In this document: one piece after another, positions 25,931 through 62,468 of the stretch
Layout: each line of letters opens with the position of its first letter
Numbering within the stretch: position 1 is the first letter of the stretch
DNA from: Eledone cirrhosa
Taxonomy: Eukaryota
Length of the DNA: 64,000 nt
Reading direction: 5' to 3'
Assembly (NCBI GenBank): GCA_964016885.1
Contig: OZ024742.1
Span: 364,870,001 to 364,934,000 of the forward strand
Program-made: the position numbers and the translations under genes
The notes under the pieces: generated by a model
Database searches by the model: none
Told to the model about the DNA's origin: nothing
The model's input: the letters and a program-made list of their open reading frames with translations, nothing else

Positions 25931-26252
25931 TATTGCGTACTTCCGTAGAAAAGGTAAAGGAAAGAAGAGTGCTCTATGTATAGTACAGAGCTATTTAATT
26001 ATGTAATAAACAACACAATATAATTATTCCATTACCCAAGGTTTCGCGAAGTCAGACGATTCTGACAAAAACGACTGATATCGCTCATCATATGATTTTT
26101 TTTCTATTCACATCCAGATCACAACTTCCTGTCAACCATGGAAATAAAGGTTTCATCTGATGAGAAATATCAGACATTTCTCTCAGAATCTTCTAACTTC
26201 GCGAAATCTTGGGAAATGGAATAATTATATTGTGTTGTTTGTTACATAATTA
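25931..26252. mobile_element. Foldback cassette with a decayed HHR on each arm; same family as 33941-34216
   Basis: Minus arm ~26027-26095: ATGATGA-GCGA..TCGC-GAAAC-CTTGG-GTA-ATGG. Plus arm 26152-26221: CTGATGA..TCGC-GAAAT-CTTGG-GAA-ATGG. Tail shared with 34130-34216. Confidence 0.75.
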
Positions 26253-26259
26253 TATATAC

Positions 26260-29208: not shown

Positions 29209-32200
29209 TTGCTGCCATTAACAAACAAACAAATTAACAACACACCAAAACAATTAAAACCATCCACTCTCACCTCAACATTTTTGCTTAACGCCCAAGG
29301 CATCAGCCCTTCCACCAATACTCAAAAATGGAAGATCAAATTCCTGGAGGACTGGGTTGATGTCCATCCAAACCACATCCCGTTCTTCGTCCTCACTGAA
29401 ACCTATCTCAGTAACCTCCACTTGGAAGCCGAGGTGAAAGTGAAAAATTTCAAAGCCATCCGTGCTGATCGCGCTGGCAGAAGAAAGGGTGGGACTGCCA
29501 TTTATGTCCATAATTCTTTCTCAACAGAGGCTATGAACATATTTACTAATGGATACTGCGAAGCAGTCACTGTATTCAATCAAACCAACAACCTAATAGT
29601 AGTTGGGCTCTATAGGCCACCCCAAACGCCTGTACTATGCTTCAAGGAATGCCTCAACAGCATAAAGTGTTTCATCCAAGAGTGTCACCCTGACAACATC
29701 TTAATGATGGGGGACTTCAACCTCCCGGGAGTTGACTGGTCCACAAACAGCCTGCCACCAGGTTCTTCTGCCTCAACCTCTGACAGGGAAGCAGTGGAAT
29801 CGCTTCTTGACTTCATGGATGATTTCTTCCTGTCCCAACTGGTGCTCGAACCAACGATTGCCACAAAAACGTCCTAAACTTAATTTTCAGCAATCACACT
29901 GACAATATCCACAATATTGCAGTGGAGAAAACTCTACTCTCTGATCATGACATGGTTCTCTGTGATCTGAGATTCCACCGTCCAATATACAAACCCAATG
30001 TCCTCTCTCCTATCCATCCGTTTGACGCTATGGATTTCCACAATGCAAACTGGGAAGCGATCAGTCATGATCTTGCACATGTCGACTGGTCCTTCACGCA
30101 CACTCATACACCCACTAACATCAAAAAGTCCTGGTAGACATTTGTGGACACTGTTACAAACATATGTGCAAAACACACCCCATTAACAACTATAAACAAA
30201 TCTAAGAGCAGAATCCCTAGAAATAGATAAAACGCTCATCAGGAAAATTAAGAGAACGAAGAAAAAAAAAAAAAAAATCAACAAGCTGAAATACTGTCAG
30301 CAGCAACACATCAACTTGACTGCCATTTCATCACTAGAGATTAAAAAACATAACCTCCAAAACAATATGATGTCTATCATCAACAATCAGAGAAGAGCTG
30401 AAGAGGCCTGGGCCATTGAGAAGATCAAACTCAATCCCAAAGTGTTCTTTTCCTTTGCAAAAAAACACAAAATCACTGACTCCACTGTTGGCCCTCTAAT
30501 TGATGAAAATGGCGCTCTTCAAGACAATGCTAAAACCATGGGTGAGATACTGCAGAAACAATACTGCTCTGTTTTCAGCAATCCTGATATGGCCGATCTG
30601 GGCTGTATCGGCGATGTTACTCCCCATTACACCTTATCGGACATAACGTTTGGCGCCCCTGATGTCTTAGCGGCAATAAAGGAAATCAAGCATAATTCAG
30701 CAGTAGGTCCCGATAGGTTCCCTGCTTATGTCTTGAAGGCGTGTCAACACCAACTTGCATCTCCTCTTGCCAATCTGTGGCGGAACTCACTGGATGCTGG
30801 ATATGTGCCAGAAAACCTTCTATCCCAGTCTGTTATCCCAGTTTTCAAAAAAGGAAACAAATCCCTTGCCGTGAATTACCGTCCAATCTCACTCACCTCT
30901 CATATCATTAAGGTATTTGAGAGAGTGGTGAGATCGCGAATGATTCACTTCCTTGAGAGTAACAATATGCTGAACTCCAACCAGCATGGATTCCGTAATG
31001 GAAGGGATTGCCTGACGCAGCTACTGCATCACTTTGATGACATTTTGAGAGCCTTGGGAGAGGGTTCCAACACTGATGTTATCTACCTTGATTTCAGCAA
31101 GGCCTTTGACAGGGTTGATCACAACATTCTACTGAGAAAGCTGTCCAATATTGGTGTCACTGGAAAGCTGCTGCAGTGGATCAAGAGCTTCCTGTCAAAC
31201 AGAACCCAACATGGTGTAGTCGAAGGAGTCAAATCCAGCCCAGCCAAAGTCAGTAGTGGGGTCCCACAAGGCACTGTGTTGGGTCCACTTCTCTTCATCA
31301 TCTATATTAATGACATCACTGACATCATCAAACACAGCAACATTAGAATTTTCGCTGATGATTCCAAGCTCCAAAAGGTCATCGATGGCGTGGATGACCG
31401 GATAAGCCTTCAGTCAGACCTACTGGCTGTTACCCAATGGGCGGAAAAGAACATGTTACTGAACGAAGACAAATTCGAACTGATCCACTTTGGAAGAGGA
31501 TGCTCTGAAACTCCCGTACTCCCTTCCCTCCGGTGAAACTCTCGTGGCATCTAACAACATCAGAGACTTGGGAGTAACCGTGGACAGCAACATAAGCTGG
31601 GCCACGCATATAAGAAGCAAAGTTGACATGGCCCGCAGAATGTGTTCCTGGATCCTCAGAACCTTCCAGTCGAGAGATTCCCACACCATTATCCTTCTCT
31701 TCTCTACTTTTGCCCGACCACACCTTGAATACTGTTGTCCACTGTGGTCTCCCCACACGAAACAACGTATCATGAAACTTGAAGCTCCCCAAAGGGCAAT
31801 CACGAAAAAGATGGATGGCATGTCAGACATTGACTACTGGGGTCGACTAGAAAAGCTCAAACTTTACTCACTCCAACGTCGCCGTAAGCGTTATATTATC
31901 TGCATGATGTGGAAAATGTTTCATCATCACTGCCCAAATGATGTTGGCATCACCTTCAAATTACACCCAAGGCTTGGGCCCGTGCTATCCGTCCCAAACA
32001 AAAATCTAAATCGCAACTCATAACAACAATACGGCACAATTAGTTCACCTCAATTGGCCCTGCTCTCTTCAACATCACACCAGGACACGTCAAAACAGAA
32101 ACTGACCACACAAAATTCAAGAAGTCTTTGGACAAATTCCTCCAAGTAATCCCGGACAAACCACCCACACCCGGATATGTCTCCGCAAACAGTAATTCTC

Positions 32201-32231
32201 TTCTCGAATGGGCCATGGTGCCCAAATCCTG
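29209..32231 (+). pseudogene. LINE ORF2 (apurinic endonuclease + reverse transcriptase), frameshifted
   Basis: LTETYL, RADR..RKGGTAIYV, YRPP, MGDFNLP, SDHD; NYRPISLTS, QHGFR, YLDFSKAFD, GVPQGTVLGPLLF, FADDSK, RPHLEYCCPLWSP. Confidence 0.93.
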
Positions 32232-32326
32232 AATTGAAAGACTTCGCCAGGTGGTGCTATTAAGTTAGACATGGCCTGGGCCAATACTGGCCAAAACATT
32301 TCAAAGTTATTCAAAGTTATATATAT

Positions 32327-33875: not shown

Positions 33876-33940
<65 letters not shown>

Positions 33941-33942
<2 letters not shown>

Positions 33943-34216
33943 CACAACACAATACAATTATTCCATTTACCAAAGGTTTCAAGAAGACAGGCGAGTTCGA
34001 TAGTGGCATCTGAAATCGTTCATCAGAGAGGAAAATTTAATATGATGTCCATATTAAATTTTCCTTTCTGATGAACGTTTGCAGCAGACGTCTTTATCTA
34101 GCTCGCCTGTTTTCGTGAAACCTTGGGTAATGGAATAATTGTATTGTGTTGTTTATTACATAATTAAATAGCTCTGTACTATACACTCCTTCCTTTACAC
34201 ATTTTACGGAAATACT
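33941..34216. mobile_element. Foldback cassette with divergently oriented HHRs on both arms
   Basis: Palindrome centred at ~34047 (GGAAAATTTAATATG-atgtc-CATATTAAATTTTCC). Plus arm CTGATGA(34068)-ACG..CGT-GAAA-CCTTGGG-TA-ATGGAA; mirror motif on the minus strand 33961-34032. Confidence 0.82.
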
Positions 34217-37598: not shown

Positions 37599-38587
37599 AA
37601 GAATAAAGTAAATAAAAAACAGAGGTAATTGAAATTGAATATATACATACACGCATCCATAAACGTACATACACAAGCATACGCGAAAACACTCGCGGTA
37701 GGTATGCAAATACAAGCGCGTACACAAAAAAAAAACACGCACGCACATACAGAACCCACGCAACGCCTGTACCCGCACACATACGAACGTATACACCAAA
37801 TACACATAAAAATATATATAAAAAATATATATATATATCTGTGTGTGCGTGTATACATAATTAAATAAACGTATATAAATATACACACATAAATACGTAT
37901 ATAACGCGCACACACATACCTATATGTAAATACACATATGTTCGCGGACCTACGTCAATCAAAACGCGAAGTACACATATACATACACCCTACATACGTA
38001 CGAACCCGCATAATCACACAGACGCAAAACTCACGTATACACAAAACCAAATGCACATGTACCAGTATATATATATAATATATACGCAATAACATATACA
38101 AGCAAATATACGTACGAGAAAGTATACGTACCTTCACAAAACATACAGGTAATATATACTTACCTATACAAAAGAGTAATGGTATAAACATAACATATAC
38201 TTAGCTAGCACATCAAGACGTAAAATATCCGTGTATAGTTCGTACTATCCGTTAGGGTATAATGTGGGGCTGTAATACAGGAAAGTTTTGTGCAATTTAT
38301 GTTTACAAGCCGAAATTGCCTCAAATTTTTTTTTTTAATGTGGTCTTTGGCGTAGAGTATTTTCAGGGCCTCGGCGGCGCAGAGGTCACATGGTCTTTTA
38401 TTTCCGTTATACGATCTAGCCTAAGCTAGGATCTCCCAGTGTAACTTATATTGCGTGTGGTTGTCTTTTAGACTCCAGATATAAGCTGAAAGTGACTTAC
38501 CTGTGACACTGACTACCTAGACAGCCATGACCTTAGCCGTTTCTGCCCCAGTAGACCCATAAGAGGTAGACCCCCACCATAACCTCA

Positions 38588-39990
38588 ATGGCAAAAAAGA
38601 CTCCCATGGGAAGGTGGATTGGGTGCACCAAAGCAGTACGGACCCCCCAAAACAATGATCAGGTAATAAAAATGGTGGCACATGCAATAGGGGCTAGTAT
38701 TAAAACTACCCTAAAGGTCCACATATTCAAATTAAACGAGAAGATCTACACCAAATATGAGGCAGCAGCCATTGGCGTCAGCATAGCTGGCGACGTTGCA
38801 AACCTTTTTATAGTGTGGTGGGAAAGGAGACTCAAAGATCTTGATGAGAGCTCCATAGACCTCATCGTGTACTCTCGTTACGTAGACGACATCACTATAG
38901 TAATAAGGACATCCCCACAAGAGAGTACTGACAAGTATGATTTAGGATGTAGCACAATGGAAAGCATCCAGCAGATAGCTAATTCCATACACCAGAGTAT
39001 AACTGTAACTATCGACTCCCCTTCCAAACACCCTAACAATAGACTACCTGTATTAGACACGGAACTCTGGATTAACACTATAGACGAGAGAGCCCAAATT
39101 CTCCACTCACACTACGCTAAAACAATGGCCTCCAAATATCTGATACTCACAAACTCAGCAGTGTCCAGTAGTGCTAAGTTTAATATTCTGATCGCAGACA
39201 TGGTACGAGTGATGAAGAACGTGTCCCGCATGTGCGACCCAACAGAAATGGAAAGACACATCCAACACTTCATCAACCGCATGCAGTTCTCTGGCTACAA
39301 CCAAAGAGACAGAATCAGAGTACACGAAGGAGCCACGGAGAAGTATAAGACCCTCATAGAACTGGACATGAAAGGAATTTTGCCATTATACATGAGCAAA
39401 TCATGGAATAGCTTAGATAGAACTAAACATAAGATAGGGAATGCCACATCATGGTACGACAACCAAAGATACCAGAGTGTCATGTTCCTGGACGCTACCC
39501 CTGGAGGGAAATTAGCTCACCAGAAAAGCCCTGAGAAAGACCCACTTAAAGATTAAGGTGGTAGAAAAGCCAGGAACCACCATAAAATCCCTGATTAGCA
39601 AAACATACTCTTTTAAGAAAACCCACTGTATTAATAGGATATGTGTTATATGTAAAGTAAACCCCCGGATAAACTGTAAAACTAGAAACATAGTCTATAG
39701 CATAAGATGTATAGACGGTACCTGCAGAAACATGACAACAACATACATAGGCGAGACAGCTCGTAGCATAGGTGAAAGGATAGACCATCAGTGGGGGGAA
39801 CTAAAATGACGAAAAAACGGTTCAGTACTATATGAACACACCAGACAACAACACGACGGTAACATAGACAACATAGAAATTAAAATAATATCTAAACATA
39901 GAAATGACCCAGCAGATAGGCAATGACAGAAGCAAGTGAAATAGAACTTAGAAGGCCAAAGCTAAACAGAAAAAATAAATGGAATAACAA
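38588..39990 (+). pseudogene. Penelope RT / GIY-YIG endonuclease, frameshifted
   Basis: ORFs 38588-39556 and 39558-39809, with read-through remnants after the stop. Confidence 0.9.
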
Positions 39991-40268
39991 AACCCAAACA
40001 AACAATACTGACCTAAGAGAAATATAAATAAATAAATAAATACATATATAAGCACAATAACAACAAATACATATAACACACACACTAGTAAACTAAGATA
40101 GAATACAATAACCAAAACAGAGTCACCCAAACACGAACACACATCAAACACTATACACACACGCAAACGCATGCGCAGAGAAGAAGACACAAATAAATAA
40201 ATAAATAAACAGATTAAATAAAGATGGCGTAGACATACAAATATAACAGGAGGAAACATAATAGCACC

Positions 40269-40303
40269 ACTGACGAGTTGCAGATGTGCAACGAAAGAAC
40301 TTT
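40269..40303 (+). ncRNA. Minimal HHR core in the Penelope 3' region; stem I disrupted
   Basis: CTGACGA-GTTGCA-gatg-TGCAAC-GAAA-GAAC-TT; homologous to the 56625-56667 motif. Confidence 0.7.
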
Positions 40304-40489
40304 CTTAGACTATATATATGTTTGTGTCTATATTATATCTGTATTTTTAGTCAGTCAATGATAAACATTGAGGAGCGAATAAATTAACTGATATAAAAGA
40401 TACGGAAGCGAAAACCAACCAAACAATGAGTGTGTTCTGTTATTAATCCTGGCAATATTATTACAACAATATGACCCTCCCCAAGTATC

Positions 40490-40534
<45 letters not shown>

Positions 40535-42675: not shown

Positions 42676-42773
<98 letters not shown>

Positions 42774-43207
42774 TACATACAGGTACACATACATATATGC
42801 ACGCATCAGTTTAGCGGACGCTTATTATAACGCCGCTTTGTTCGTTTGTAAACAAACTGAACAGCCTGAATTTATGCCATACGGTGTTAAGGCAACCACG
42901 TCACCTTTTTGTTCAACACTGACACAGGAACGATGTACTAGTTTCAAGCTTGTTAGCTATCATCAGCACCGTATACCCATCTGCCAGATAGTTGAACGTT
43001 CGAAAGTATATACTTTCGTTATGAAAATTAACGGCTGAGCAGCCTAATTTGTATATTGAGTGAGTTAAATCGGTCAGGCATACCGAAAACGATAAGTTGA
43101 AAAAAATGAAAACGAAAGTTCATTTCTCACTCTTAGTATGGCACTTACTTAAATGTAAGTATGTATGTATACGTACATACATATATGTATACAGACGTAC
43201 AGTAGCA

Positions 43208-43277
<70 letters not shown>

Positions 43278-44448: not shown

Positions 44449-44525
<77 letters not shown>

Positions 44526-44702
44526 TTGAATATCAAAGAAAGACGAACCCAGATATATAGATATATGTGTTCAAATCGCAAGGGACCAGATTCGCTAAAG
44601 TGAAAAGAATACTAACTATACTAACTATAGACAATAGGGGTTGCCTGTCTCAATTTAAGAAAAAATCAAGAAAATAAATACAAATCGGAATTGTGGTAAC
44701 TA

Positions 44703-44786
44703 TCAATCACCCAGACAACTTGGTGTTGTTTCGCAATATTAATTGTGAATAGAATTACCAATTCTTGCTCATCAGTGGGTGATCAA
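44703..44786 (-). ncRNA. Canonical type I hammerhead ribozyme with a stable stem III
   Basis: Minus strand: ATCACCCA-CTGATGA-GCAA...TTGC-GAAA-CAAC-accaa-GTTG-TC-TGGGTGAT (8-bp stem I, GUC site). Confidence 0.93.
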
Positions 44787-44962
44787 TTAGTATCCTAGAC
44801 ACTTATAACTATATTAAGAACTAAATAGTGTGCTATATATAATAACGCACATGGTATCTTAGCGTGTCTCACAAACTTACACCACTAAAAATAGAAGCCA
44901 GGTCCCTGGCACTTTGAACACATATATCTATATATCTGCGTTTTTTTTCTTTTAAATTGTAG

Positions 44963-45016
44963 CTTTACTTGCCCTGATGAGTCCTTAATAGGACGAAACA
45001 TTGTTGGCTAATAAAG
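44963..45016 (+). ncRNA. Canonical minimal type I hammerhead ribozyme
   Basis: CTTTA-ctt-GCC-CTGATGA-GTCC-ttaata-GGAC-GAAAC-att-GTT-GGC-taa-TAAAG (stem I with an internal loop, GUU site). Confidence 0.92.
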
Positions 45017-45165
45017 ACTTTTGATGTATTGAAGGCTTCTTTGGTTTAATTTTTATAATTCTTCGGCTCTGTTTAATTACATTGAGCTATATCTTATACT
45101 GTAATTTCTGTAATATGAAGAGGGTGTTTAACTCCAACACACTCTAGTATTTTAATTCTTATATA

Positions 45166-45225
<60 letters not shown>

Positions 45226-45232
<7 letters not shown>

Positions 45233-46336: not shown

Positions 46337-49057
46337 ATTTTGATATCTTTGATAGGTTTTGGCCAGTATTGGCCCAGGACATGTCTAACTTAATAGCACA
46401 ACCTGGCGAAGTCTTACAAATCAGTGTTTGGGCACCATGGCCCACTCGAGCAGAGAGTTATTGTTTACGGAGGTATATCCGGGTGTAGGAGGCTTATCCG
46501 GGTTTCTTGAAGGAATTTATCCAAAGACCTCTTGAACTTGATGGGGTCTGTTTCTGTTTTAATGTGTTTTGGTGTAATGTTAAAGAGTGCAGGGCCAATT
46601 GGGGTGATATAATTGTGCCGTATTGTTTTTATGTGATGCGAGTGGGATTTTTGTCGTGGGCGGATAACACGGGGCCCAACCTTGGGTGTACACTAAAGGT
46701 GATGCGTACATCATTTGGGCTAAGCTGATGGAATATTTTCCACATCATACAGATAATGTAGTGCTCACGGCGACGTTGAAGAGAATAAAGTTTGAGCTTT
46801 TCTAAACGACCCCAATAGTCAAGGCCTGTCATGCCAACTATCTTTTTTTTAATTGACCTTTGGGGTGCTTCAACTTTCATGATACTTTGTTTCGTGTGGG
46901 GGGACCACAGTGGACAACAGTATTCAAAGTGGGGTCGTACAAAAGTGGAGAAGTGAAGGGGCAACAGTGTGGATATCTCTCGACTGGAAAGTTCTGGGAA
47001 TCCAGGAACACATTCTGCGGGCCATATCAACTTTGCTGTTTATATGAGTGGCCCAGCTTATGTTGTTGTCCACAATTACTCCCAGGTCTCTGATGTTATT
47101 GGAAGCCACTAGAGTTTCACCCGAAGGAAGAGAGTATGGTAGTTTCAAGGCATCCTTTTTTCCAAATTGGATTAGTTCAAATTTATCCTCATTCAACAGC
47201 ATATTATTCATCTCTGCCCATTGGATAACAGCCAGTAGGTCTGACTGAAGGCAAGTCCGGTCACCCACCTCATTGATGACCCTTTGGAGCTTGGAATCAT
47301 CTGCGAAGATTCTGATGTCACTGTGTTTGATGGTGTCAGTAATGTCATTAATGTAAATGATGAAAAGAAGTAGGCCCAACACAGTGCCTTGTGGGACGCC
47401 ACTGCGGACTTTGGCAGGGCTTGATTTTACTCCTTCGACTACAACATGCTGGGTTCTGCCTGTCAGGAAACATTTGATCCACTGTAGTAACCTTCCAGAG
47501 ACAACATTGGATAGTTTTTTCAGTAGAATCTTATGAACAACCCTGTCGAAGGCCTTGCTGAAATCAAGGTAGATGACATCAGTGTTGGAGCCCTCTCCCA
47601 AGGCTCTCAAAACATCGTCAATGTGATGCAGGAGCTGCGTTAGGCAGTCCCTTCCATTACGGAACCCATGTTGGTTGGAGTTCAGCAGGCCGTTGCTTTC
47701 AAGAAAGTGGGTTATTCGTGATCTCACCACCCTCTCAAATACCTTGATAATATGAGATGTGAGTGAGATGGGACGGTAGTTCACTGCAAGGGACTTATAT
47801 CCCTTTTTGAAGACTGGGACAACGGACTGGGACAAAAGTTTTCAGGAATATAGCCACTGTCCAGTGAGTTCCTCCACAGATTAGCAAGAGGTGTTGCAAG
47901 TTGGTGTCGACACACCTTCAGGACACAAGCAGGGAACCTGTCGGGGCCTACTGCTGAATTTTGTTTAATTTCTTTTATTGCCGCTAAGACATCAGGGGCG
48001 CCAAACGTTATGTCTGATATAGTGTGTTGGGGGTTAACATCACTGATACAGCCCAGATCGTCCATATCAGGATTGTTGAAACCAGAGCAGTATTGTTTCT
48101 GCAGTATCTCTCCCATGGTTTTGGCATTGTCTTGGAATGTGCCATTTTCATCAACTAGGGGCCAACAGTGGAGACGGTGACCTTGTGTTTTTTAGCGAAT
48201 GAGAAGAACACTTTGGGGTTGAGTTTGATTTTCTCAATGGCCCACCTCTCTTCAGCTATTCTCTGGTTATTGATGATGGTCATCATGCATTACTGGAGGT
48301 TATTTTTTTTTTACTCAAGCAGGGTGATAGCCATTGAACGCGTGTGTTTCTGTTGGCAGTATTTTAGTGTGTTAATTTTTTTGTTTGTTCTTTTTTATTT
48401 TTCTGATAATTGTTTTTCTGTTTTGGGAGATACTGCACTTGATTTTTTTCACAAGTTTTGGTGGGGTGCGTTTTGTACATATATTTGTGACAGTGTCTAC
48501 AAAGATCTGCCAAGATGTTTTGATGTTGGTAGTAGTGTGTGCGTGTGTAAAAGACCAGTCGACATGTGATAGTTCGTTCATAATTGCATTCCAGTTGGCA
48601 TTGTAGAGATCCATGTTATCAAATGAGTGGGCTGGAGAGAGGACCCTGGGATTAGCTTTCGGCTGGTGGAATCTCAGGTTACAAAGAACCATGTCATGGT
48701 CTGAGAGAAGGGTTTTTTCCACTGTAATATTATGTATAGTATTAGTGTGGTTACTAAACACTAGATCCAGAATGTTCTTCTGATGCCTCGTTGGTACAAG
48801 GATAAGTTGGGACAAGATAAACTCATTCATGAAGTCAAGAAGTGACTCGACAGCCTCTTTGTCAGTGGTTGACGCTGTCGAGCCTGGTTTCAAACTACAT
48901 GTAGACCAATAGACACAGGGTAGATTAAAGTCTCCCATCAAAAGTATGTTGCTAGAATGGCACTGTTTAATAAAGCATTTAATACTGTTGAGGCATTCTT
49001 TGAAACAGATTATGGGTGTTTGTAGCGGCCTATAGAGCCCAACTAATGTCAGGTCAT
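46337..49057 (-). mobile_element. 5'-truncated CR1-group LINE, same family as 27960-32319 in opposite orientation
   Basis: Minus-strand ORFs with YRP, GDFNLP, SDHD, YLDFSKAFD, GVPQGTVLG, FADDSK, RPHFEYCCPLWSP; homologous 3'UTR (..GCTATTAAGTTAGACATG.CCTGGGCCAATACTGGCCAAAAC). Confidence 0.93.
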
Positions 49058-49202
49058 TGGCATGTCTCTTTTCTACGCTTCCTCTTACATCTCTCTCTCA
49101 CTAGCACCTGATTCTGTTAGCTGGAGATTTACCCATCTGCATTGTTGAGGCTTCCAAAACGATCATTTTTATTATCCCACAATGCTCCAAGCAAACTTCA
49201 AC

Positions 49203-49246
<44 letters not shown>

Positions 49247-49249
<3 letters not shown>

Positions 49250-52200
49250 GTTCGGTGAATCCATACGTGCATATATATATGTGTGCATGTATGTATATAT
49301 ATATATACATACTACTGTACGTCGGTATACATATATGTATGTACGTGTACATACTTATATTTAAGTAACAGCCGTACTAAGAGTGGGAAATGAAATATCA
49401 TTTCATTTTTTCCGTTTATCGTTTTCGGTGCACCCGGCCGATTAACCCACTCGATATGCAAATTGGGCTACTCAGCCGTTAATATGCATAAGGTAAGTAT
49501 ATACGTTCAACAATCTGGCAGGAAGGTATACGTTGCTGACGATAGCTAACAAGCTTGAAACTAGTACAGCGTTCCTTTGTCAGTGTTGAACAAACGAGCA
49601 ACGGTGGTTGCTAGACACTACGGCTTAATACGGGATGTTTGTTTACAAACACACCGAGCATTATAATAAATGTTCGGTGAATCCATACGTGCATATATAT
49701 ATGTGTGCATGTATGTATATATATATATACATACTACTGTACGTCGGTATACATATATGTATGTACGTGTACATACTTATATTTAAGTAACAGCCGTACT
49801 AAGAGTGGGAAATGAAATATCGTTTCATTTTTTCCGTTTATCGTTTTCGGTGCACCCGGCCGATTAACCCACTCGATATGCAAATTGGGCTACTCAGCCG
49901 TTAATATGCATAAGGTAAGTATATACGTTCAACAATCTGGCAGGAAGGTATACGTTGCTGACGATAGCTAACAAGCTTGAAACTAGTACAGCGTTCCTTT
50001 GTCAGTGTTGAACAAACGAGCAACGGTGGTTGCTAGACACTACGGCTTAATACGGGATGTTTGTTTACAAACACACCGAGCATTATAATAAATGTTCGGT
50101 GAATCCATACGTGCATATATATATGTGTGCATGTATGTATATATATATATACATACTACTGTACGTCGGTATACATATATGTATGTACGTGTACATACTT
50201 ATATTTAAGTAACAGCCGTACTAAGAGTGGGAAATGAAATATCGTTTCATTTTTTCCGTTTATCGTTTTCGGTGCACCCGGCCGATTAACCCACTCGATA
50301 TGCAAATTGGGCTACTCAGCCGTTAATATGCATAAGGTAAGTATATACGTTCAACAATCTGGCAGGAAGGTATACGTTGCTGACGATAGCTAACAAGCTT
50401 GAAACTAGTACAGCGTTCCTTTGTCAGTGTTGAACAAACGAGCAACGGTGGTTGCTAGACACTACGGCTTAATACGGGATGTTTGTTTACAAACACACCG
50501 AGCATTATAATAAATGTTCGGTGAATCCATACGTGCATATATATATGTGTGCATGTATGTATATATATATATACATACTACTGTACGTCGGTATACATAT
50601 ATGTATGTACGTGTACATACTTATATTTAAGTAACAGCCGTACTAAGAGTGGGAAATGAAATATCGTTTCATTTTTTCCGTTTATCGTTTTCGGTGCACC
50701 CGGCCGATTAACCCACTCGATATGCAAATTGGGCTACTCAGCCGTTAATATGCATAAGGTAAGTATATACGTTCAACAATCTGGCAGGAAGGTATACGTT
50801 GCTGACGATAGCTAACAAGCTTGAAACTAGTACAGCGTTCCTTTGTCAGTGTTGAACAAACGAGCAACGGTGGTTGCTAGACACTACGGCTTAATACGGG
50901 ATGTTTGTTTACAAACACACCGAGCATTATAATAAATGTTCGGTGAATCCATACGTGCATATATATATATATGCGTGCATGTATGTATATATATATATAC
51001 ATACTACTGTACGTCGGTATACATATATGTATGTACGTGTACATACTTATATTTAAGTAACAGCCGTACTAAGAGTGGGAAATGAAATATCGTTTCATTT
51101 TTTCCGTTTATCGTTTTCGGTGCACCCGGCCGATTAACCCACTCGATATGCAAATTGGGCTACTCAGCCGTTAATATGCATAAGGTAAGTATATACGTTC
51201 AACAATCTGGCAGGAAGGTATACGTTGCTGACGATAGCTAACAAGCTTGAAACTAGTACAGCGTTCCTTTGTCAGTGTTGAACAAACGAGCAACGGTGGT
51301 TGCTAGACACTACGGCTTAATACGGGATGTTTGTTTACAAACACACCGAGCATTATAATAAATGTTCGGTGAATCGATACGTGCATATATATATGTGTGC
51401 ATGTATGTATATATATATATACATACTACTGTACGTCGGTATACATATATGTATGTACGTGTACATACTTATATTTAAGTAACAGCCGTACTAAGAGTGG
51501 GAAATGAAATATCGTTTCATTTTTTCCGTTTATCGTTTTCGGTGCACCCGGCCGATTAACCCACTCGATATGCAAATTGGGCTACTCAGCCGTTAATATG
51601 CATAAGGTAAGTATATACGTTCAACAATCTGGCAGGAAGGTATACGTTGCTGACGATAGCTAACAAGCTTGAAACTAGTACAGCGTTCCTTTGTCAGTGT
51701 TGAACAAACGAGCAACGGTGGTTGCTAGACACTACGGCTTAATACGGGATGTTTGTTTACAAACACACCGAGCATTATAATAAATGTTCGGTGAATCCAT
51801 ACGTGCATATATATATGTGTGCATGTATGTATATATATATATACATACTACTGTACGTCGGTATACATATATGTATGTACGTGTACATACTTATATTTAA
51901 GTAACAGCCGTACTAAGAGTGGGAAATGAAATATCGTTTCATTTTTTCCGTTTATCGTTTTCGGTGCACCCGGCCGATTAACCCACTCGATATGCAAATT
52001 GGGCTACTCAGCCGTTAATATGCATAAGGTAAGTATATACGTTCAACAATCTGGCAGGAAGGTATACGTTGCTGACGATAGCTAACAAGCTTGAAACTAG
52101 TACAGCGTTCCTTTGTCAGTGTTGAACAAACGAGCAACGGTGGTTGCTAGACACTACGGCTTAATACGGGATGTTTGTTTACAAACACACCGAGCATTAT

Positions 52201-52793
52201 AATAAATGTTCGGTGAATCGATACGTGCATATATATATGTGTGCATGTATGTATATATATATATACATACTACTGTACGTCGGTATACATATATGTATGT
52301 ACGTGTACATACTTATATTTAAGTAACAGCCGTACTAAGAGTGGGAAATGAAATATCGTTTCATTTTTTCCGTTTATCGTTTTCGGTGCACCCGGCCGAT
52401 TAACCCACTCGATATGCAAATTGGGCTACTCAGCCGTTAATATGCATAAGGTAAGTATATACGTTCAACAATCTGGCAGGAAGGTATACGTTGCTGACGA
52501 TAGCTAACAAGCTTGAAACTAGTACAGCGTTCCTTTGTCAGTGTTGAACAAACGAGCAACGGTGGTTGCTAGACACTACGGCTTAATACGGGATGTTTGT
52601 TTACAAACACACCGAGCATTATAATAAATGTTCGGTGAATCCATACGTGCATATATATATGTGTGCATGTATGTATATATATATATACATACTACTGTAC
52701 GTCGGTATACATATATGTATGTACGTGTACATACTTATATTTAAGTAACAGCCGTACTAAGAGTGGGAAATGAAATATCGTTTCATTTTTTCC

Positions 52794-52797
<4 letters not shown>
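49247..52797 (+). mobile_element. Tandem array of 422-bp HHR-containing units (retrozyme-like satellite), 8.4 copies
   Basis: Marker TGTTCGG at 49249, 49671, 50093, 50515, 50937, 51363, 51785, 52207, 52629; units nearly identical; flanked by (TA)n. Confidence 0.95.
49530..49572 (+). ncRNA. Minimal type I hammerhead ribozyme; repeated at 49952, 50374, 50796, 51222, 51644, 52066, 52488
   Basis: ACGTTG-CTGACGA-T-AGCT-aaca-AGCT-T-GAAA-CTAG-TA-CAGCGT; palindromic stem III (ACTAGT); GUA cleavage predicted after 49566. Confidence 0.88.
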
Positions 52798-52827
<30 letters not shown>

Positions 52828-55493: not shown

Positions 55494-55530
<37 letters not shown>

Positions 55531-55745
55531 TTTCTGAATTTGTTTAGCAAGATTCTTTATCTGAAAACGTGTGCTGAAACCGATATTGTTATACTTTGGG
55601 GGGGGGGGGGTCATGTTGCCAATAAGAAACACACGCACCAGTCGTTTCACTTCAATTTATTATAATAAATTTATAAATTTAGGAATTTATAAATTTCCGG
55701 TTGGTTGGTTGGTTCCACAACCAGATGGTTGTTTATATATTGCCA

Positions 55746-56430
55746 GAACCAAATGGGAAAAAATGGTAAATAATGACACAAATGGGACCTGCCCCTTGTA
55801 TAGGAGCAAATTTTGGAATAGAATAGAAAGAACTAGGAATAAGGCTAATAGAATAAACTCATGGTATGATAGCAATAAATACCAGAGTGTAATGTTCATC
55901 GATACAACCCCTAGAGGTGAATTAGCTTACAAATTTAGAAGGGCCCTAGATAAACATAAACTCAATATTAAGAAAGTAGAAAGACCAGGTACCTCCATAA
56001 AAACACTTATTAGCGAGACATACCCTTTTCAAGGACCTCCCTATATAGATAAGAAATGTATAATCTGTAAAATATGCCCCCATATTAACTGTAAAACAAG
56101 AAATGTAGTATATAGCATAAGATGTACTGAAGGACAATGTAGAGATACAAATATAGTGTACATAGGTGAGACAGCTCGTAGTATAGGGGAACGGATAAAT
56201 GAACACTGGCGAGAGCTTCAAGATAGTAAAGAATCATCTGTACTCTACCAACATGCTAAAATAGGACATACGGGTAAATTAGAGAACATAGAAATAAAAA
56301 TAGAATCTACACACAGAAAAGACGCAATGTTTAGACAAATCACAGAGGCAATAAACATAAATGAATTATAAGCAAAATTAAATAGAAAGCATGAGTGGAA
56401 CAGCAACATCACAACTTACAATTAAGGACA
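55746..56430 (+). pseudogene. Penelope linker + GIY-YIG endonuclease fragment
   Basis: YQSVMFIDTTPRGELA..CIICK..NCKTRNVVYSIRC..YIGETARSIGERINEH..RQITEA; the first ~57 aa of ORF 55571 derive from the inverted repeat. Confidence 0.9.
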
Positions 56431-56624
56431 AAATGAAAACAGACACGCACATACAACAAACAACCAACCAGTAACATGTAAATAAACAAATAAATAAACG
56501 AATAAAAAACACACAGACACCCGGATGTAACACATGCGCAAACTAAGCACAACACACACACAAAAACAAGATGGCGTAGGGCAGAACAAAGGAGAGGCAC
56601 AAAAAGCAAAGAAAAGAATCCCCA

Positions 56625-56667
56625 GTCACTGAAGAGGTCACAGAATGTGTGACGAAAGAACTTTGAC
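56625..56667 (+). ncRNA. Minimal type I hammerhead ribozyme in the Penelope pLTR
   Basis: GTCA-CTGAAGA-G-GTCACA-gaatg-TGTGAC-GAAA-G-aa-C-TT-TGAC; cleavage predicted after 56663. Confidence 0.82.
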
Positions 56668-56813
56668 AATATATAAACAACCATCTGGTTGTGGAACCAA
56701 CGAACCAACCGGAAATTTATAAATTCCTAAATTTATAAATTTATTATAATAAATTGAAGTGAAAGCAGCTGGTGCGTGTGTTTCTTATTGGCAACATGAC
56801 CCTCCCAAAGTAT

Positions 56814-56898
<85 letters not shown>

Positions 56899-59355: not shown

Positions 59356-59387
<32 letters not shown>

Positions 59388-59394
59388 CATACAA

Positions 59395-61120
59395 TTGTAC
59401 GTCTATATACATATATGTATGTACGTATACATACTTATATTTAAGTAACAGCCGTACTAAGAGTGGGAAATGAAATTTCGTTTCATTTTTTTCCGTTTAT
59501 CGTTTTCGGTGCACCCGGCTGATTAACCCACTCGATATGCAAATTGGGCAACTCAGCCGTTAATATGCATAAGGTAAGTATATACGTTCAACAATCTGGC
59601 AGGAAGGTGTACGTTGCTGACGATAGCTAATAAGCTTGAAACTAGTACAGCGTTCCTTTGTCAGTGTTGAACAAACGAGCAACGATGGTTGCTAGACACT
59701 ACGGCTTAATGCGGGATGTTTGTTTACAAACACACCGAGCATTATAATAAATGTTCGGTGAATCCATACGTACATATATATATGTGTGCATGTATGTATA
59801 TATATATACATACTACTGTCCGTCTGTATACATATATGTATTTACGTTTACATACATATATGTAAGTAACAGCCGTACTAAGAATGGGAAATGAAATTTC
59901 GTTTCATTTTTTCCGTTTATCGTTTTCGGTGCACCCGGCCGATTAAACCACTCGATATGTAAATTGGGCTACTCAGCCGTTAATATGCATAAGGTAAGTA
60001 TATATGTTCAACAATCTGGCAGGAAGGTATACGTTGCTGACGATAGCTAATAAGCTTGAAACTAGTACAGCGTTCATTTGTCAGTGTTGAACAAACGAGC
60101 AACGATGGTAGCTAGACACTAAGGCTTAATGCGGGATGTTTGTTTACAAACACACCAAGCATTATAATAAATGTTCGGTGAATCCATACGTACATATATA
60201 AATGTGTGCATGTATGTATATATATACACACTACTGTACGACTGTATACATATATGTATGTACGTATACATACTTATATTTAAGTAACAGCCGCACTAAG
60301 AGTGGGAAATGAAATTTCGTTTCATTTTTTTCCGTTTATCGTTTTCGGTGCACCCGGCTGATTAACCCACTCGATATGCAAATTGGGCAACTCAGCCGTT
60401 AATATGCATAAGGTAAGTATATACGTTCAACAATCTGGCAGGAAGGTGTACGTTGCTGACGATAGCTAATAAGCTTGAAACTAGTACAGCGTTCCTTTGT
60501 CAGTGTTGAACAAACGAGCAACGGTGGTTGCTAGACACTACGGCTTAATACGGGATGTTTGTTTACAAACACACCGAGCATTATAATAAATGTTCGGTGA
60601 ATCCATACGTGCATATATATATGTGTGCATGTATGTATATGTATATATACATACTACTGTACGTCGGTATACATATATGTATGTACGTGTACATACTTAT
60701 ATTTAAGTAACAGCCGTACTAAGAGTGGGAAATGAAATATCGTTTCATTTTTTCCGTTTATCGTTTTCGGTGCACCCGGCCGATTAACCCACTCGATATG
60801 CAAATTGGGCTACTCAGCCGTTAATATGCATAAGGTAAGTATATACGTTCAACAATCTGGCAGGAAGGTATACGTTGCTGACGATAGCTAACAAGCTTGA
60901 AACTAGTACAGCGTTCCTTTGTCAGTGTTGAACAAACGAGCAACGATGGTTGCTAGACACTACGGCTTAATGCGGGATGTTTGTATACAAACACACCGAC
61001 CATTATAATAAATGTTCTGTGAATCCATACGTACATATATGTGTGTGCATGTATGTATATATATATGCATACTACTGTACGTTTGTATACATATATGTAT
61101 GTACGTGTACATACTTATAT
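59395..61120 (+). mobile_element. Second, more diverged array of the 422-bp HHR unit (~4.1 copies)
   Basis: HHRs start at 59611, 60031, 60450, 60872 (spacing 420/419/422); cores intact; loop II AACA/AATA variation. Confidence 0.95.
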
Positions 61121-61884: not shown

Positions 61885-61888
<4 letters not shown>

Positions 61889-62468
61889 TGCCACTGTACG
61901 TCTGTATACATATATGTATGTACGTATACATGCATACTTACATTTAAGTAAGTGCCATACTAAGAGTGAGAAATGAAATTTCGTTTTCATTTTGTTTCAA
62001 TTTAACGTTTTCGGTATGCCTGACCGATTTAACTCACTCAATATGCAAATTAGGCTGCTCAGCCGTTAATTTTCATAAGGAAAGTATATACTTTCGAACG
62101 TTCAACTATCTGGCAGATGGGTAAACGGTGCTGATGATAGCTAAAAAGCTTGAAACTAGTACATCGTTCCTGTGTCAGTGTTGAACAAAAAGGTGACGTG
62201 GTTGCCTTAACACCGTATGGCATAAATTCAGGCTGTTCAGTTTGTTTACAAACGAACAAAGCGACGTTATAACAAGCGCCGCTAAACTGATACGTGCATA
62301 TATGTATGTGTACCTGTATGCATATGTATATATATATGTATATATATATATGTGCATGCTACTGTACGTCTGTATACATATATGTATGTACGTATACATG
62401 CATACTTACATTTAAGTAAGTGCCATACTAAGAGTGAGAAATGAAATTTCGTTTTCATTTTGTTTCAA
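61885..62468 (+). mobile_element. Retrozyme-like repeat, subfamily B (~1.4 units)
   Basis: Homologous to the 422-bp unit and near-identical to the reverse complement of 42560-43318; flanked by (TA)n. Confidence 0.88.
62124..62168 (+). ncRNA. Minimal type I hammerhead ribozyme (subfamily B)
   Basis: AACGGTG-CTGATGA-T-AGCT-aaaa-AGCT-T-GAAA-CTAG-TA-CATCGTT. Confidence 0.88.

Follow-up and report, generated by a model that had tools for sequence, protein, structure and literature searches.

Two type I hammerhead motifs of separate repeat families, likely Penelope-like, on opposite strands of a (TA)n-bounded island

Organization of the locus

The window analysed here, a stretch of DNA of 64,000 nucleotides, is AT-rich throughout and contains many (TA)n tracts and retroelement remnants. 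Between two of these tracts lies an island (44519–45159) that carries two hammerhead motifs, HHR-A and HHR-B, on opposite strands (Table 1), as a preliminary description of the sequence had recognized. The island consists of a long minus-strand arm of one repeat family, A, placed head to head with X′, a short piece that repeats the 3′ end of family A on the plus strand; X′ is followed by a fragment of a second family, B. X′ and its counterpart X in the long arm form an inverted repeat of 59 alignment columns with 84.7% identity (E = 5.7e-12); the preliminary description had noticed this inverted segment but had put its length at about 38 bp. X′ overlaps the family A arm by 3 nt (44901–44903) and family B by 2 nt (44957–44958), and no TA remains between X′ and family B. 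The distance from the predicted cut site to the 3′ end is 195 nt for HHR-A (to the TA tract) and 152 nt for HHR-B (before 45157). Self-comparison of the 64-kb window gave no second copy of either arm, and neither family contains an ATG-started frame of more than 12 codons.

Elsewhere in the window, a 20-bp satellite with approximately 1139 copies and a strong GC skew occupies 1–22761, and two LINE remnants in opposite orientation (29585–32315 and 46339–49060), 81% identical to each other, contain AP-endonuclease and reverse transcriptase (RT) frames.

Table 1. Features of the island and of the tracts that bound it.
Feature	Position	Strand	Remarks
Left (TA)n tract	44452–44518		Abuts the 3′ end of the family A fragment
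Family A fragment	44519–44903	minus	5′-truncated 3′ end of a dispersed repeat, likely a Penelope-like pseudo-LTR; covered by runs X1 and X8 in every bin
Segment X	44529–44587	minus	Near the 3′ end of family A; from inverted-repeat search and copy depth
HHR-A, type I hammerhead	44702–44787	minus	GUC; predicted cut 44714/44713
Putative leader hairpin, RAGATH-1-like	44788–44804	minus	Directly 5′ of HHR-A helix I
Segment X′	44901–44958	plus	Short inverted copy of the family A 3′ end, lacking the last ~10 nt
Family B fragment	44957–45159	plus	5′-truncated 3′ end of a second dispersed repeat; in runs of three organism labels
HHR-B, typical animal type I hammerhead	44961–45019	plus	GUU; predicted cut 45005/45006
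Right (TA)n tract	45160–45229		Abuts the 3′ end of family B

Copies in sequencing runs

Parts of the island are present in seven runs from four studies. The best run contains a fraction of only 0.22 of the island words, so its source organism may not be the species of the window; no RNA run is among those that share island words. Four of the ten listed runs (X1–X10) were mapped at 80% likeness, namely X1 (1672 contigs), X8 (2756 RAD-seq reads), X4 (eight contigs) and X6 (three contigs). The mapping displays 40 of 179 substitutions, 12 of 23 indels and 20 of 291 loose ends, each loose end being cut at 30 letters. RAD-seq (X8) samples copies unevenly and contig depth (X1) is not copy number.

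The two halves of the island continue separately in other copies. The depth in X8 is about 1.5–1.8 over 44915–44958, about 308 at 44959–44980 and about 1044 at 44563–44584, the family A depth being highest at 44563–44606; over X′ it is thus less than 1% of that on HHR-B. The X1 contigs do give depth over X′ (5981 and 2591), with 73 of the 1672 contigs fitting two places. At the 5′ side of the A arm, 123 X8 reads continue past 44903 with other letters, and at its 3′ side the end point is 44524 in 148 of the 182 X8 molecules. The loose letters ahead of 44535 are TA-rich, and family A reads run into TA-rich letters at an agreement of 0.55. Upstream of family B, 177 X8 reads have other letters before 44969, and contigs of X1, X4 and X6 likewise carry other letters (before 44957, 44960 or 44969), the loose ends showing two versions of upstream sequence. 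Downstream, 224 X8 reads pass into (TA)n behind 45156 and copies of B leave at 45155–45156. Both ends lie at or below 44901 in all five listed joints, of which four switch strand and none links A to B, and no piece among those listed spans the whole island. Because of these separate continuations, the low depth over X′ and the confinement of the joints, A and B are two separate repeat families, X′ is a short inverted piece of the 3′ end of A, and the junction between X′ and HHR-B is rare or private.

Two of the four strand-switch joints lie at 44900 and 44901 in other copies, beside the island's own inversion point, so family A may have a favoured 5′ limit at 44900–44903. X and X′ have two common minority letters (44560 and 44579), found in approximately 10–23% of the X1 and X8 depth. 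Among the listed pieces of X4 and X6, four differ from the A arm by 6–9%, and four of the five that align with the B arm differ from it by 0–4%, the fifth by 13%.

Identification of the hammerhead motifs

A strict type I descriptor, with at least 3, 4 and 2 bp in helices I, II and III around a CUGANGA core, picks out 2 of the 36 such cores in the window, namely HHR-A and HHR-B. Across 5000 dinucleotide-shuffled versions of the island the same descriptor matched twice in all, each time in a different version. In both motifs C3 U4 G5 A6 N7 G8 A9, G12 A13 A14 A15 and U16 H17 are intact, following the type I core criterion as given in PMC3088659, and paired bases adjoin the core in all three helices. 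At gathering level no Rfam family matched in the window.

Further hammerhead-like sequences occur outside the island. Tandem units of 420–422 bp and related single copies are found at 49238–52799, 59372–61120, 42771–43210 and 61886–62467; each full unit has a CUGANGA word, and these retrozyme-like arrays fail the hammerhead descriptors. Two related palindromic insertions (25992–26256 and 33940–34215) contain hammerhead cores at 26157 and 34068 on the plus strand and at 34026 on the minus strand, likewise with long helix II inserts; they represent a further family, apparently decayed.

Structure and variation of HHR-B

The core of HHR-B is formed by CUGAUGA (44974–44980) and GAAA (44995–44998), and GUU precedes the predicted cut. 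Helix I comprises 3 bp, an internal loop and then 5 bp, and helix II is the 5-bp GUCCU/AGGAC, one pair longer than the GUCC/GGAC of the preliminary description, which had given the same trinucleotide and looped stem I. Helix III has 2 bp, a 3-nt loop and a palindromic sequence that lets one copy pair with another (duplex −4.7 kcal/mol); a weak helix III of this dimer type is known from animal motifs (PMC4209133). The active monomer fold accounts for at most 0.02% of the predicted ensemble, and the modelling indicates that HHR-B is likely not active as a monomer and likely dimer-dependent. This dependence is tempered by an axolotl motif with a 2-bp helix III and a tetraloop, for which 22% cleavage in one hour as a monomer has been described (PMC7229834).

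In its helix II of 4–5 bp and short palindromic helix III, HHR-B resembles the canonical animal type I hammerheads, including those of non-LTR retrozymes (PMC7229834; HH9, RF02275), and its UUAC/UA internal-loop letters align with those of HH9. It scores 28.5 bits against HH9 (E = 7.7e-5), however, below the cut-off of 52 bits; its proximal helix I has 3 bp, or 5 with a bulge; and it is not in tandem here. The UUAC letters differ in another subfamily, represented by the loose ends before 44969.

Among the 40 of 179 substitutions displayed, none falls in 44959–45043 and 12 fall in 45044–45145, which suggests constraint on HHR-B. Two X4 contig pieces match HHR-B without a difference over 42 and 30 nt, and an indel at 44984 falls in a loop.

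Structure and variation of HHR-A

HHR-A contains CUGAUGA (44775–44769), GAAA (44732–44729) and GUC at the predicted cut site. The 8-bp stem I, 5-bp stem III and GUC of the preliminary description were all found again: helix I has eight Watson–Crick pairs (12 counting G–U) and helix III has 5 bp closed by a 5-nt loop. Helix II, absent from that description, is GCAA/UUGC enclosing 28 nt and is best modelled as 4 + 6 bp with a 13-nt loop at 44756–44744. A three-way junction inside helix II was rejected, as it reaches −15.9 or −17.7 kcal/mol compared with −20.2 kcal/mol for the extended helix and is also disfavoured by variants 44750, 44753 and 44755, which fall in its loop. The preliminary description had called both motifs fully canonical, which holds for HHR-B only in so far as it has the usual animal type I form, with its weak helix III, and for HHR-A extends only to the intact core: in the predicted structure, HHR-A is atypical in combining this core with a 5-bp helix III, a long helix II and a 5′ hairpin.

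With its stable helix III, HHR-A could cut as a monomer. Against this, the modelled active fold lies approximately 3 kcal/mol above the ensemble, corresponding to about 0.6–0.7% of it in a nearest-neighbour model that ignores core and tertiary energy. The minimum-energy fold has helices I and III, helix II being displaced by alternative pairings that take up GAA.

None of the eight substitutions displayed in HHR-A is at a core position, which is not significant alone (40 of 179 substitutions displayed). In helix III, 26 of 60 X8 reads and also 19 X1 contigs have another letter at 44718, and loose ends of X1 and X4 have another letter at its partner 44726. The apparent change is from A–U to G–C, with both sides seen but never together in one molecule (phase not shown). 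Unless compensated, variants 44783, 44784 and 44742 disrupt outer pairs of the predicted fold; indels at 44721 and 44723 lie in loops and an indel at 44759 lies in the predicted distal helix II.

The published animal hammerheads of Penelope-like elements (PLEs) are described as minimal or as having a small palindromic helix III (PMC4209133), whereas HHR-A has 5 bp there. It resembles the fungal and protist PLE hammerheads with a large helix III presented in the same source in being of type I with a stable helix III and in its atypical lengths of helices I and II, with no standard loop 1–loop 2 motif; one of these, the Serpula motif, is reported to cut at 0.16 per minute in 1 mM Mg2+ (PMC4209133). 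It is unlike them in its presumed animal host, its (TA)n target and its candidate leader pseudoknot. An 18-mer of HHR-A was found at three loci in viral contigs, and the one examined, L001, was without hammerhead context; metagenome scans for HHR-A and for HHR-B each gave no match.

On the minus strand, at 44880–44875, the A arm has a GTRAG splice-donor-like word about 23 nt from its 5′ end. Across copies, position 44878 of this word is A or G, and both letters fit the donor consensus. The word might be the sign of a 5′ UTR intron of Penelope type that lies upstream of HHR-A.

A RAGATH-1-like leader in HHR-A

The best Rfam match of HHR-A (131 nt) is the RAGATH-1 hammerhead (RF03152), known from phage and bacterial contigs, with 22.1 bits and E = 0.067 against a cut-off of 56.3 bits; members fetched for comparison score 35–83 bits. 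The match is lost when 17 nt upstream of helix I are removed. This leader folds as a 4-bp hairpin 5′ of helix I, as in RAGATH-1, at −4.2 kcal/mol, which 7.7% of shuffles equal or better. Only 0.06% of 5000 shuffles surpass its likeness to one real RAGATH-1 member, a post-hoc figure. HHR-A and RAGATH-1 also share type I topology, a long helix III and a leader loop ending in AGGA, which lies 12 nt from the core in HHR-A and 11 nt in RAGATH-1. They differ in helix II (approximately 10 bp against 1–2 bp) and helix I (12 bp against 5 bp) and in the AUAAAA linker, which is absent from HHR-A. With these differences and its score, HHR-A was rejected as a member of RAGATH-1.

The leader AGGA (44796–44793) is a candidate pseudoknot partner of HHR-A loop II (44754–44751). 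The predicted pairing between leader and loop II comprises 6 bp + 3 bp at −8.6 kcal/mol; 1.1% of 5000 shuffles equal it by energy and 39% hold some 6-bp run. Variant 44753 converts a G–U of the 4-bp pseudoknot core to G–C, variants 44750 and 44755 break outer pairs of the candidate pseudoknot unless compensated, and the long form of the pairing competes with the leader hairpin.

For comparison, 40 loci were fetched as a RAGATH-1 leader-pattern set, of which 38 were parsed (39 matches, 16 distinct loop pairs); RF03152 matched in 17 of the 20 fetched loci that were scanned. With the exception of L056, all parsed loci have a helix II of 1–2 bp, and their leader loop and loop II are joined by 4–6 pairs whose two sides covary. 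In the phage and bacterial contigs (L018–L055) this covariation is absent from the printed Rfam structure line of RF03152. One locus, L036, contains two RAGATH-1 hammerheads in tandem, and at another, L022, a twister-P1 match lies beside the RAGATH-1 hammerhead. A search with the leader-plus-core pattern found 14 loci, three of them RAGATH-1 matches and none resembling HHR-A. A RAGATH-1-like leader in an animal repeat was not found in the titles and abstracts of the literature surveyed, which includes few subscription papers and not the primary description of RAGATH-1.

HHR-A may be read, on the modelled pairing, as working like RAGATH-1 hammerheads through a leader–loop II pseudoknot. Pseudoknot-braced hammerheads are put at about 40%, a human one included, in PMC3088659, and because they are so common the putative pseudoknot would make HHR-A a variant of what is known, with no new class implied.

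Relationship to Penelope-like elements

Two coding PLE remnants lie in the window. The first (38570–40492) has an RT (38570–39556) and the second (55529–56817) a piece of a GIY-YIG open reading frame (55565–56371); both have a CX2-5CxxC linker and a minimal hammerhead, 200 and 164 nt, respectively, from (TA)n. Their Pfam scores of 17 and 19 bits are below the curated cut-offs, and the GIY-YIG piece has one longer homologue, a protein of 394 residues that is 42% identical. The second remnant has an inverted end (55587–55745/56664–56817), which includes an extension of about 58 nt. Both remnants have the word AAGATGGCG approximately 50–60 nt upstream of the hammerhead and similar 3′ ends at (TA)n. 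The presence of PLE remnants whose GIY-YIG domain is C-terminal suggests that the host is an animal.

The distances between hammerhead and (TA)n in the island, 177 and 215 nt, are to be set beside the 164–200 nt of these remnants. As in PLE pseudo-LTRs (pLTRs), the hammerheads of A and B lie near the 3′ end of the insertion, family A combines 5′ truncation with an inverted head-to-head copy (X′ and the four strand-switch joints), and the insertions are biased to microsatellites, family B into (TA)n and family A into TA-rich sequence. An inverted partner for family B was not seen in the data mapped here. Inverted 5′-truncated copies and a bias to (TA)n have been described for PLE insertions (Craig et al., 2021; PMC8557442), and opposite-strand hammerheads 100–700 bp apart are reported from Schistosoma (Cervera & de la Pena, 2014; PMC4209133). 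The island matches the pLTR hammerheads of endonuclease-bearing PLEs in these two sources in its type I motifs near a 5′-truncated 3′ end, its head-to-head inverted copy, its (TA)n target and its opposite-strand pair, which is about 200 nt apart; it differs in that its two hammerheads belong to different families. Non-microsatellite inverted repeats are also present in 11 other of the 58 inter-(TA)n stretches of the window (selected by visual inspection; many of these stretches are very short).

Downstream of the hammerhead, families A and B are rich in T and the two ORF-bearing remnants are rich in A, and hence A and B are not the families of those remnants. Of the two upstream motifs taken from the loose ends and sought in the window, one gave a single match with three mismatches (chance mean 0.27) and the other gave none. 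These motif searches and the metagenome scans linked no RT or GIY-YIG ORF to A or B; judging by their layout, the two families are likely PLE pLTR ends.

Origin of the composite island

We consider it fairly probable, at roughly two chances in three, that the island combines end fragments of two separate families, likely PLE pLTRs inserted in (TA)n, and that each family brought a type I hammerhead with it. Family A would have arrived as a 5′-truncated insertion with an inverted partner, the usual product of PLE target-primed reverse transcription, and the insertion of family B where the short arm of A ends would most likely have been a later, separate event. PLEs are known to insert into or beside older PLE copies (PMC6765202; PMC3846280). 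X′ and B would have been joined by a 2-nt microhomology, with loss of approximately 10 nt of the A end and of any TA there. The hammerheads presumably acted on the RNAs of the parent elements. HHR-B would have worked in dimers paired through the palindromic helix III, and HHR-A probably worked as a single molecule that the leader–loop II pseudoknot may have braced. The island itself likely carries both as passengers, and no joint function would attach to their lying in opposite orientation. Two insertion events are weakly favoured over one, because the two A arms differ by 15% and most listed B pieces differ by 0–4% compared with 6–9% for A.

A single insertion, in which the RT copied the 3′ end of B, switched to an RNA of family A at its 3′ end and then made the inverted A copy, is an unlikely course with several observations in its favour. 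It would give the published PLE order of inverted copy, short direct copy and main copy (PMC8557442), with a foreign family as the main copy; it would account for the lack of TA between X′ and B without a deletion. Overlaps of 2–3 nt at both junctions and a family B without an inverted partner of its own also speak for it. The minority letters common to X and X′ also fit, but they tie X to X′ and not to B. The 15% difference between X and X′ is against it, as is the closer likeness of the listed X4 and X6 pieces to the B arm than to the A arm, a weak hint that B is younger, and one rotifer study reports no cross-mobilization between two PLE types (PMC3846280). We regard as doubtful the stronger proposition that family A is an animal retroelement with a fast single-molecule hammerhead braced by a RAGATH-1-type pseudoknot and that the island records an RT jump between the RNAs of two families in one insertion.

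A or B, or both, might instead be monomers of non-LTR retrozymes, tandem units of 170–400 nt that make circular RNA, and not truncated ends of coding PLEs. PMC7229834 assigns to retrozymes the canonical type I form, which is that of HHR-B, most invertebrate retrozymes are described as forming a stable helix III and cutting as monomers (PMC7761336), and the window itself holds tandem 420–422-bp arrays with hammerhead cores (49238–52799 and 59372–61120). Each family, however, is present in a single copy in the window, none of the five listed joints is a head-to-tail return, reads that run off B enter (TA)n and the joints of A include strand switches, which makes this origin rather improbable. 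It would be a neighbour of the two-family PLE explanation, because a 2026 preprint derives retrozymes from PLE pLTRs (bioRxiv 10.64898/2026.07.22.740005).

The preliminary description had proposed a parent element with HHR-A, the inverted segment and HHR-B in one orientation, of which the island would be a rearranged copy. The local order is compatible with such a parent and the X1 contigs give depth over X′, with the reservation on double placement noted above. The proposal nevertheless did not survive comparison with other copies, in which the X8 depth drops over X′, two different sequences precede B, TA-rich sequence closes family A shortly beyond X and the linkage of the two hammerheads, by which the description itself would have judged the matter, is found in none of the five listed joints; we hold it to be very improbable. 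An integrated viroid-like circular RNA with one ribozyme per polarity is scarcely credible: two hammerheads of opposite polarity lie within 640 nt, the whole island folds with z of −6.3 and −7.0 and such RNAs exist in animals (PMC7761336), but the X/X′ repeat is the source of these z values (once X′ is removed, the circular fold has −112.5 kcal/mol against −104.7 ± 5.2 kcal/mol in 20 shuffles, with a paired fraction of 0.62 against 0.58), the halves are separate DNA repeat families and both motifs are of type I.

Significance

The two motifs are real and their arrangement is ordinary for two families; what appears unusual is the predicted single-molecule design of HHR-A. The opposite-strand arrangement in itself matters little, as it is already published for truncated Penelope-like insertions. 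If the junction between X′ and B arose in one event, it would be evidence for template jumping between families. Animal PLE hammerheads have been described as minimal, slow and dependent on dimers or protein, and their role as open (PMC4209133; PMC11167929). The HHR-A family could provide a direct test of whether a PLE-type element keeps a fast monomeric ribozyme, and of the effect of such a ribozyme on its RNA.
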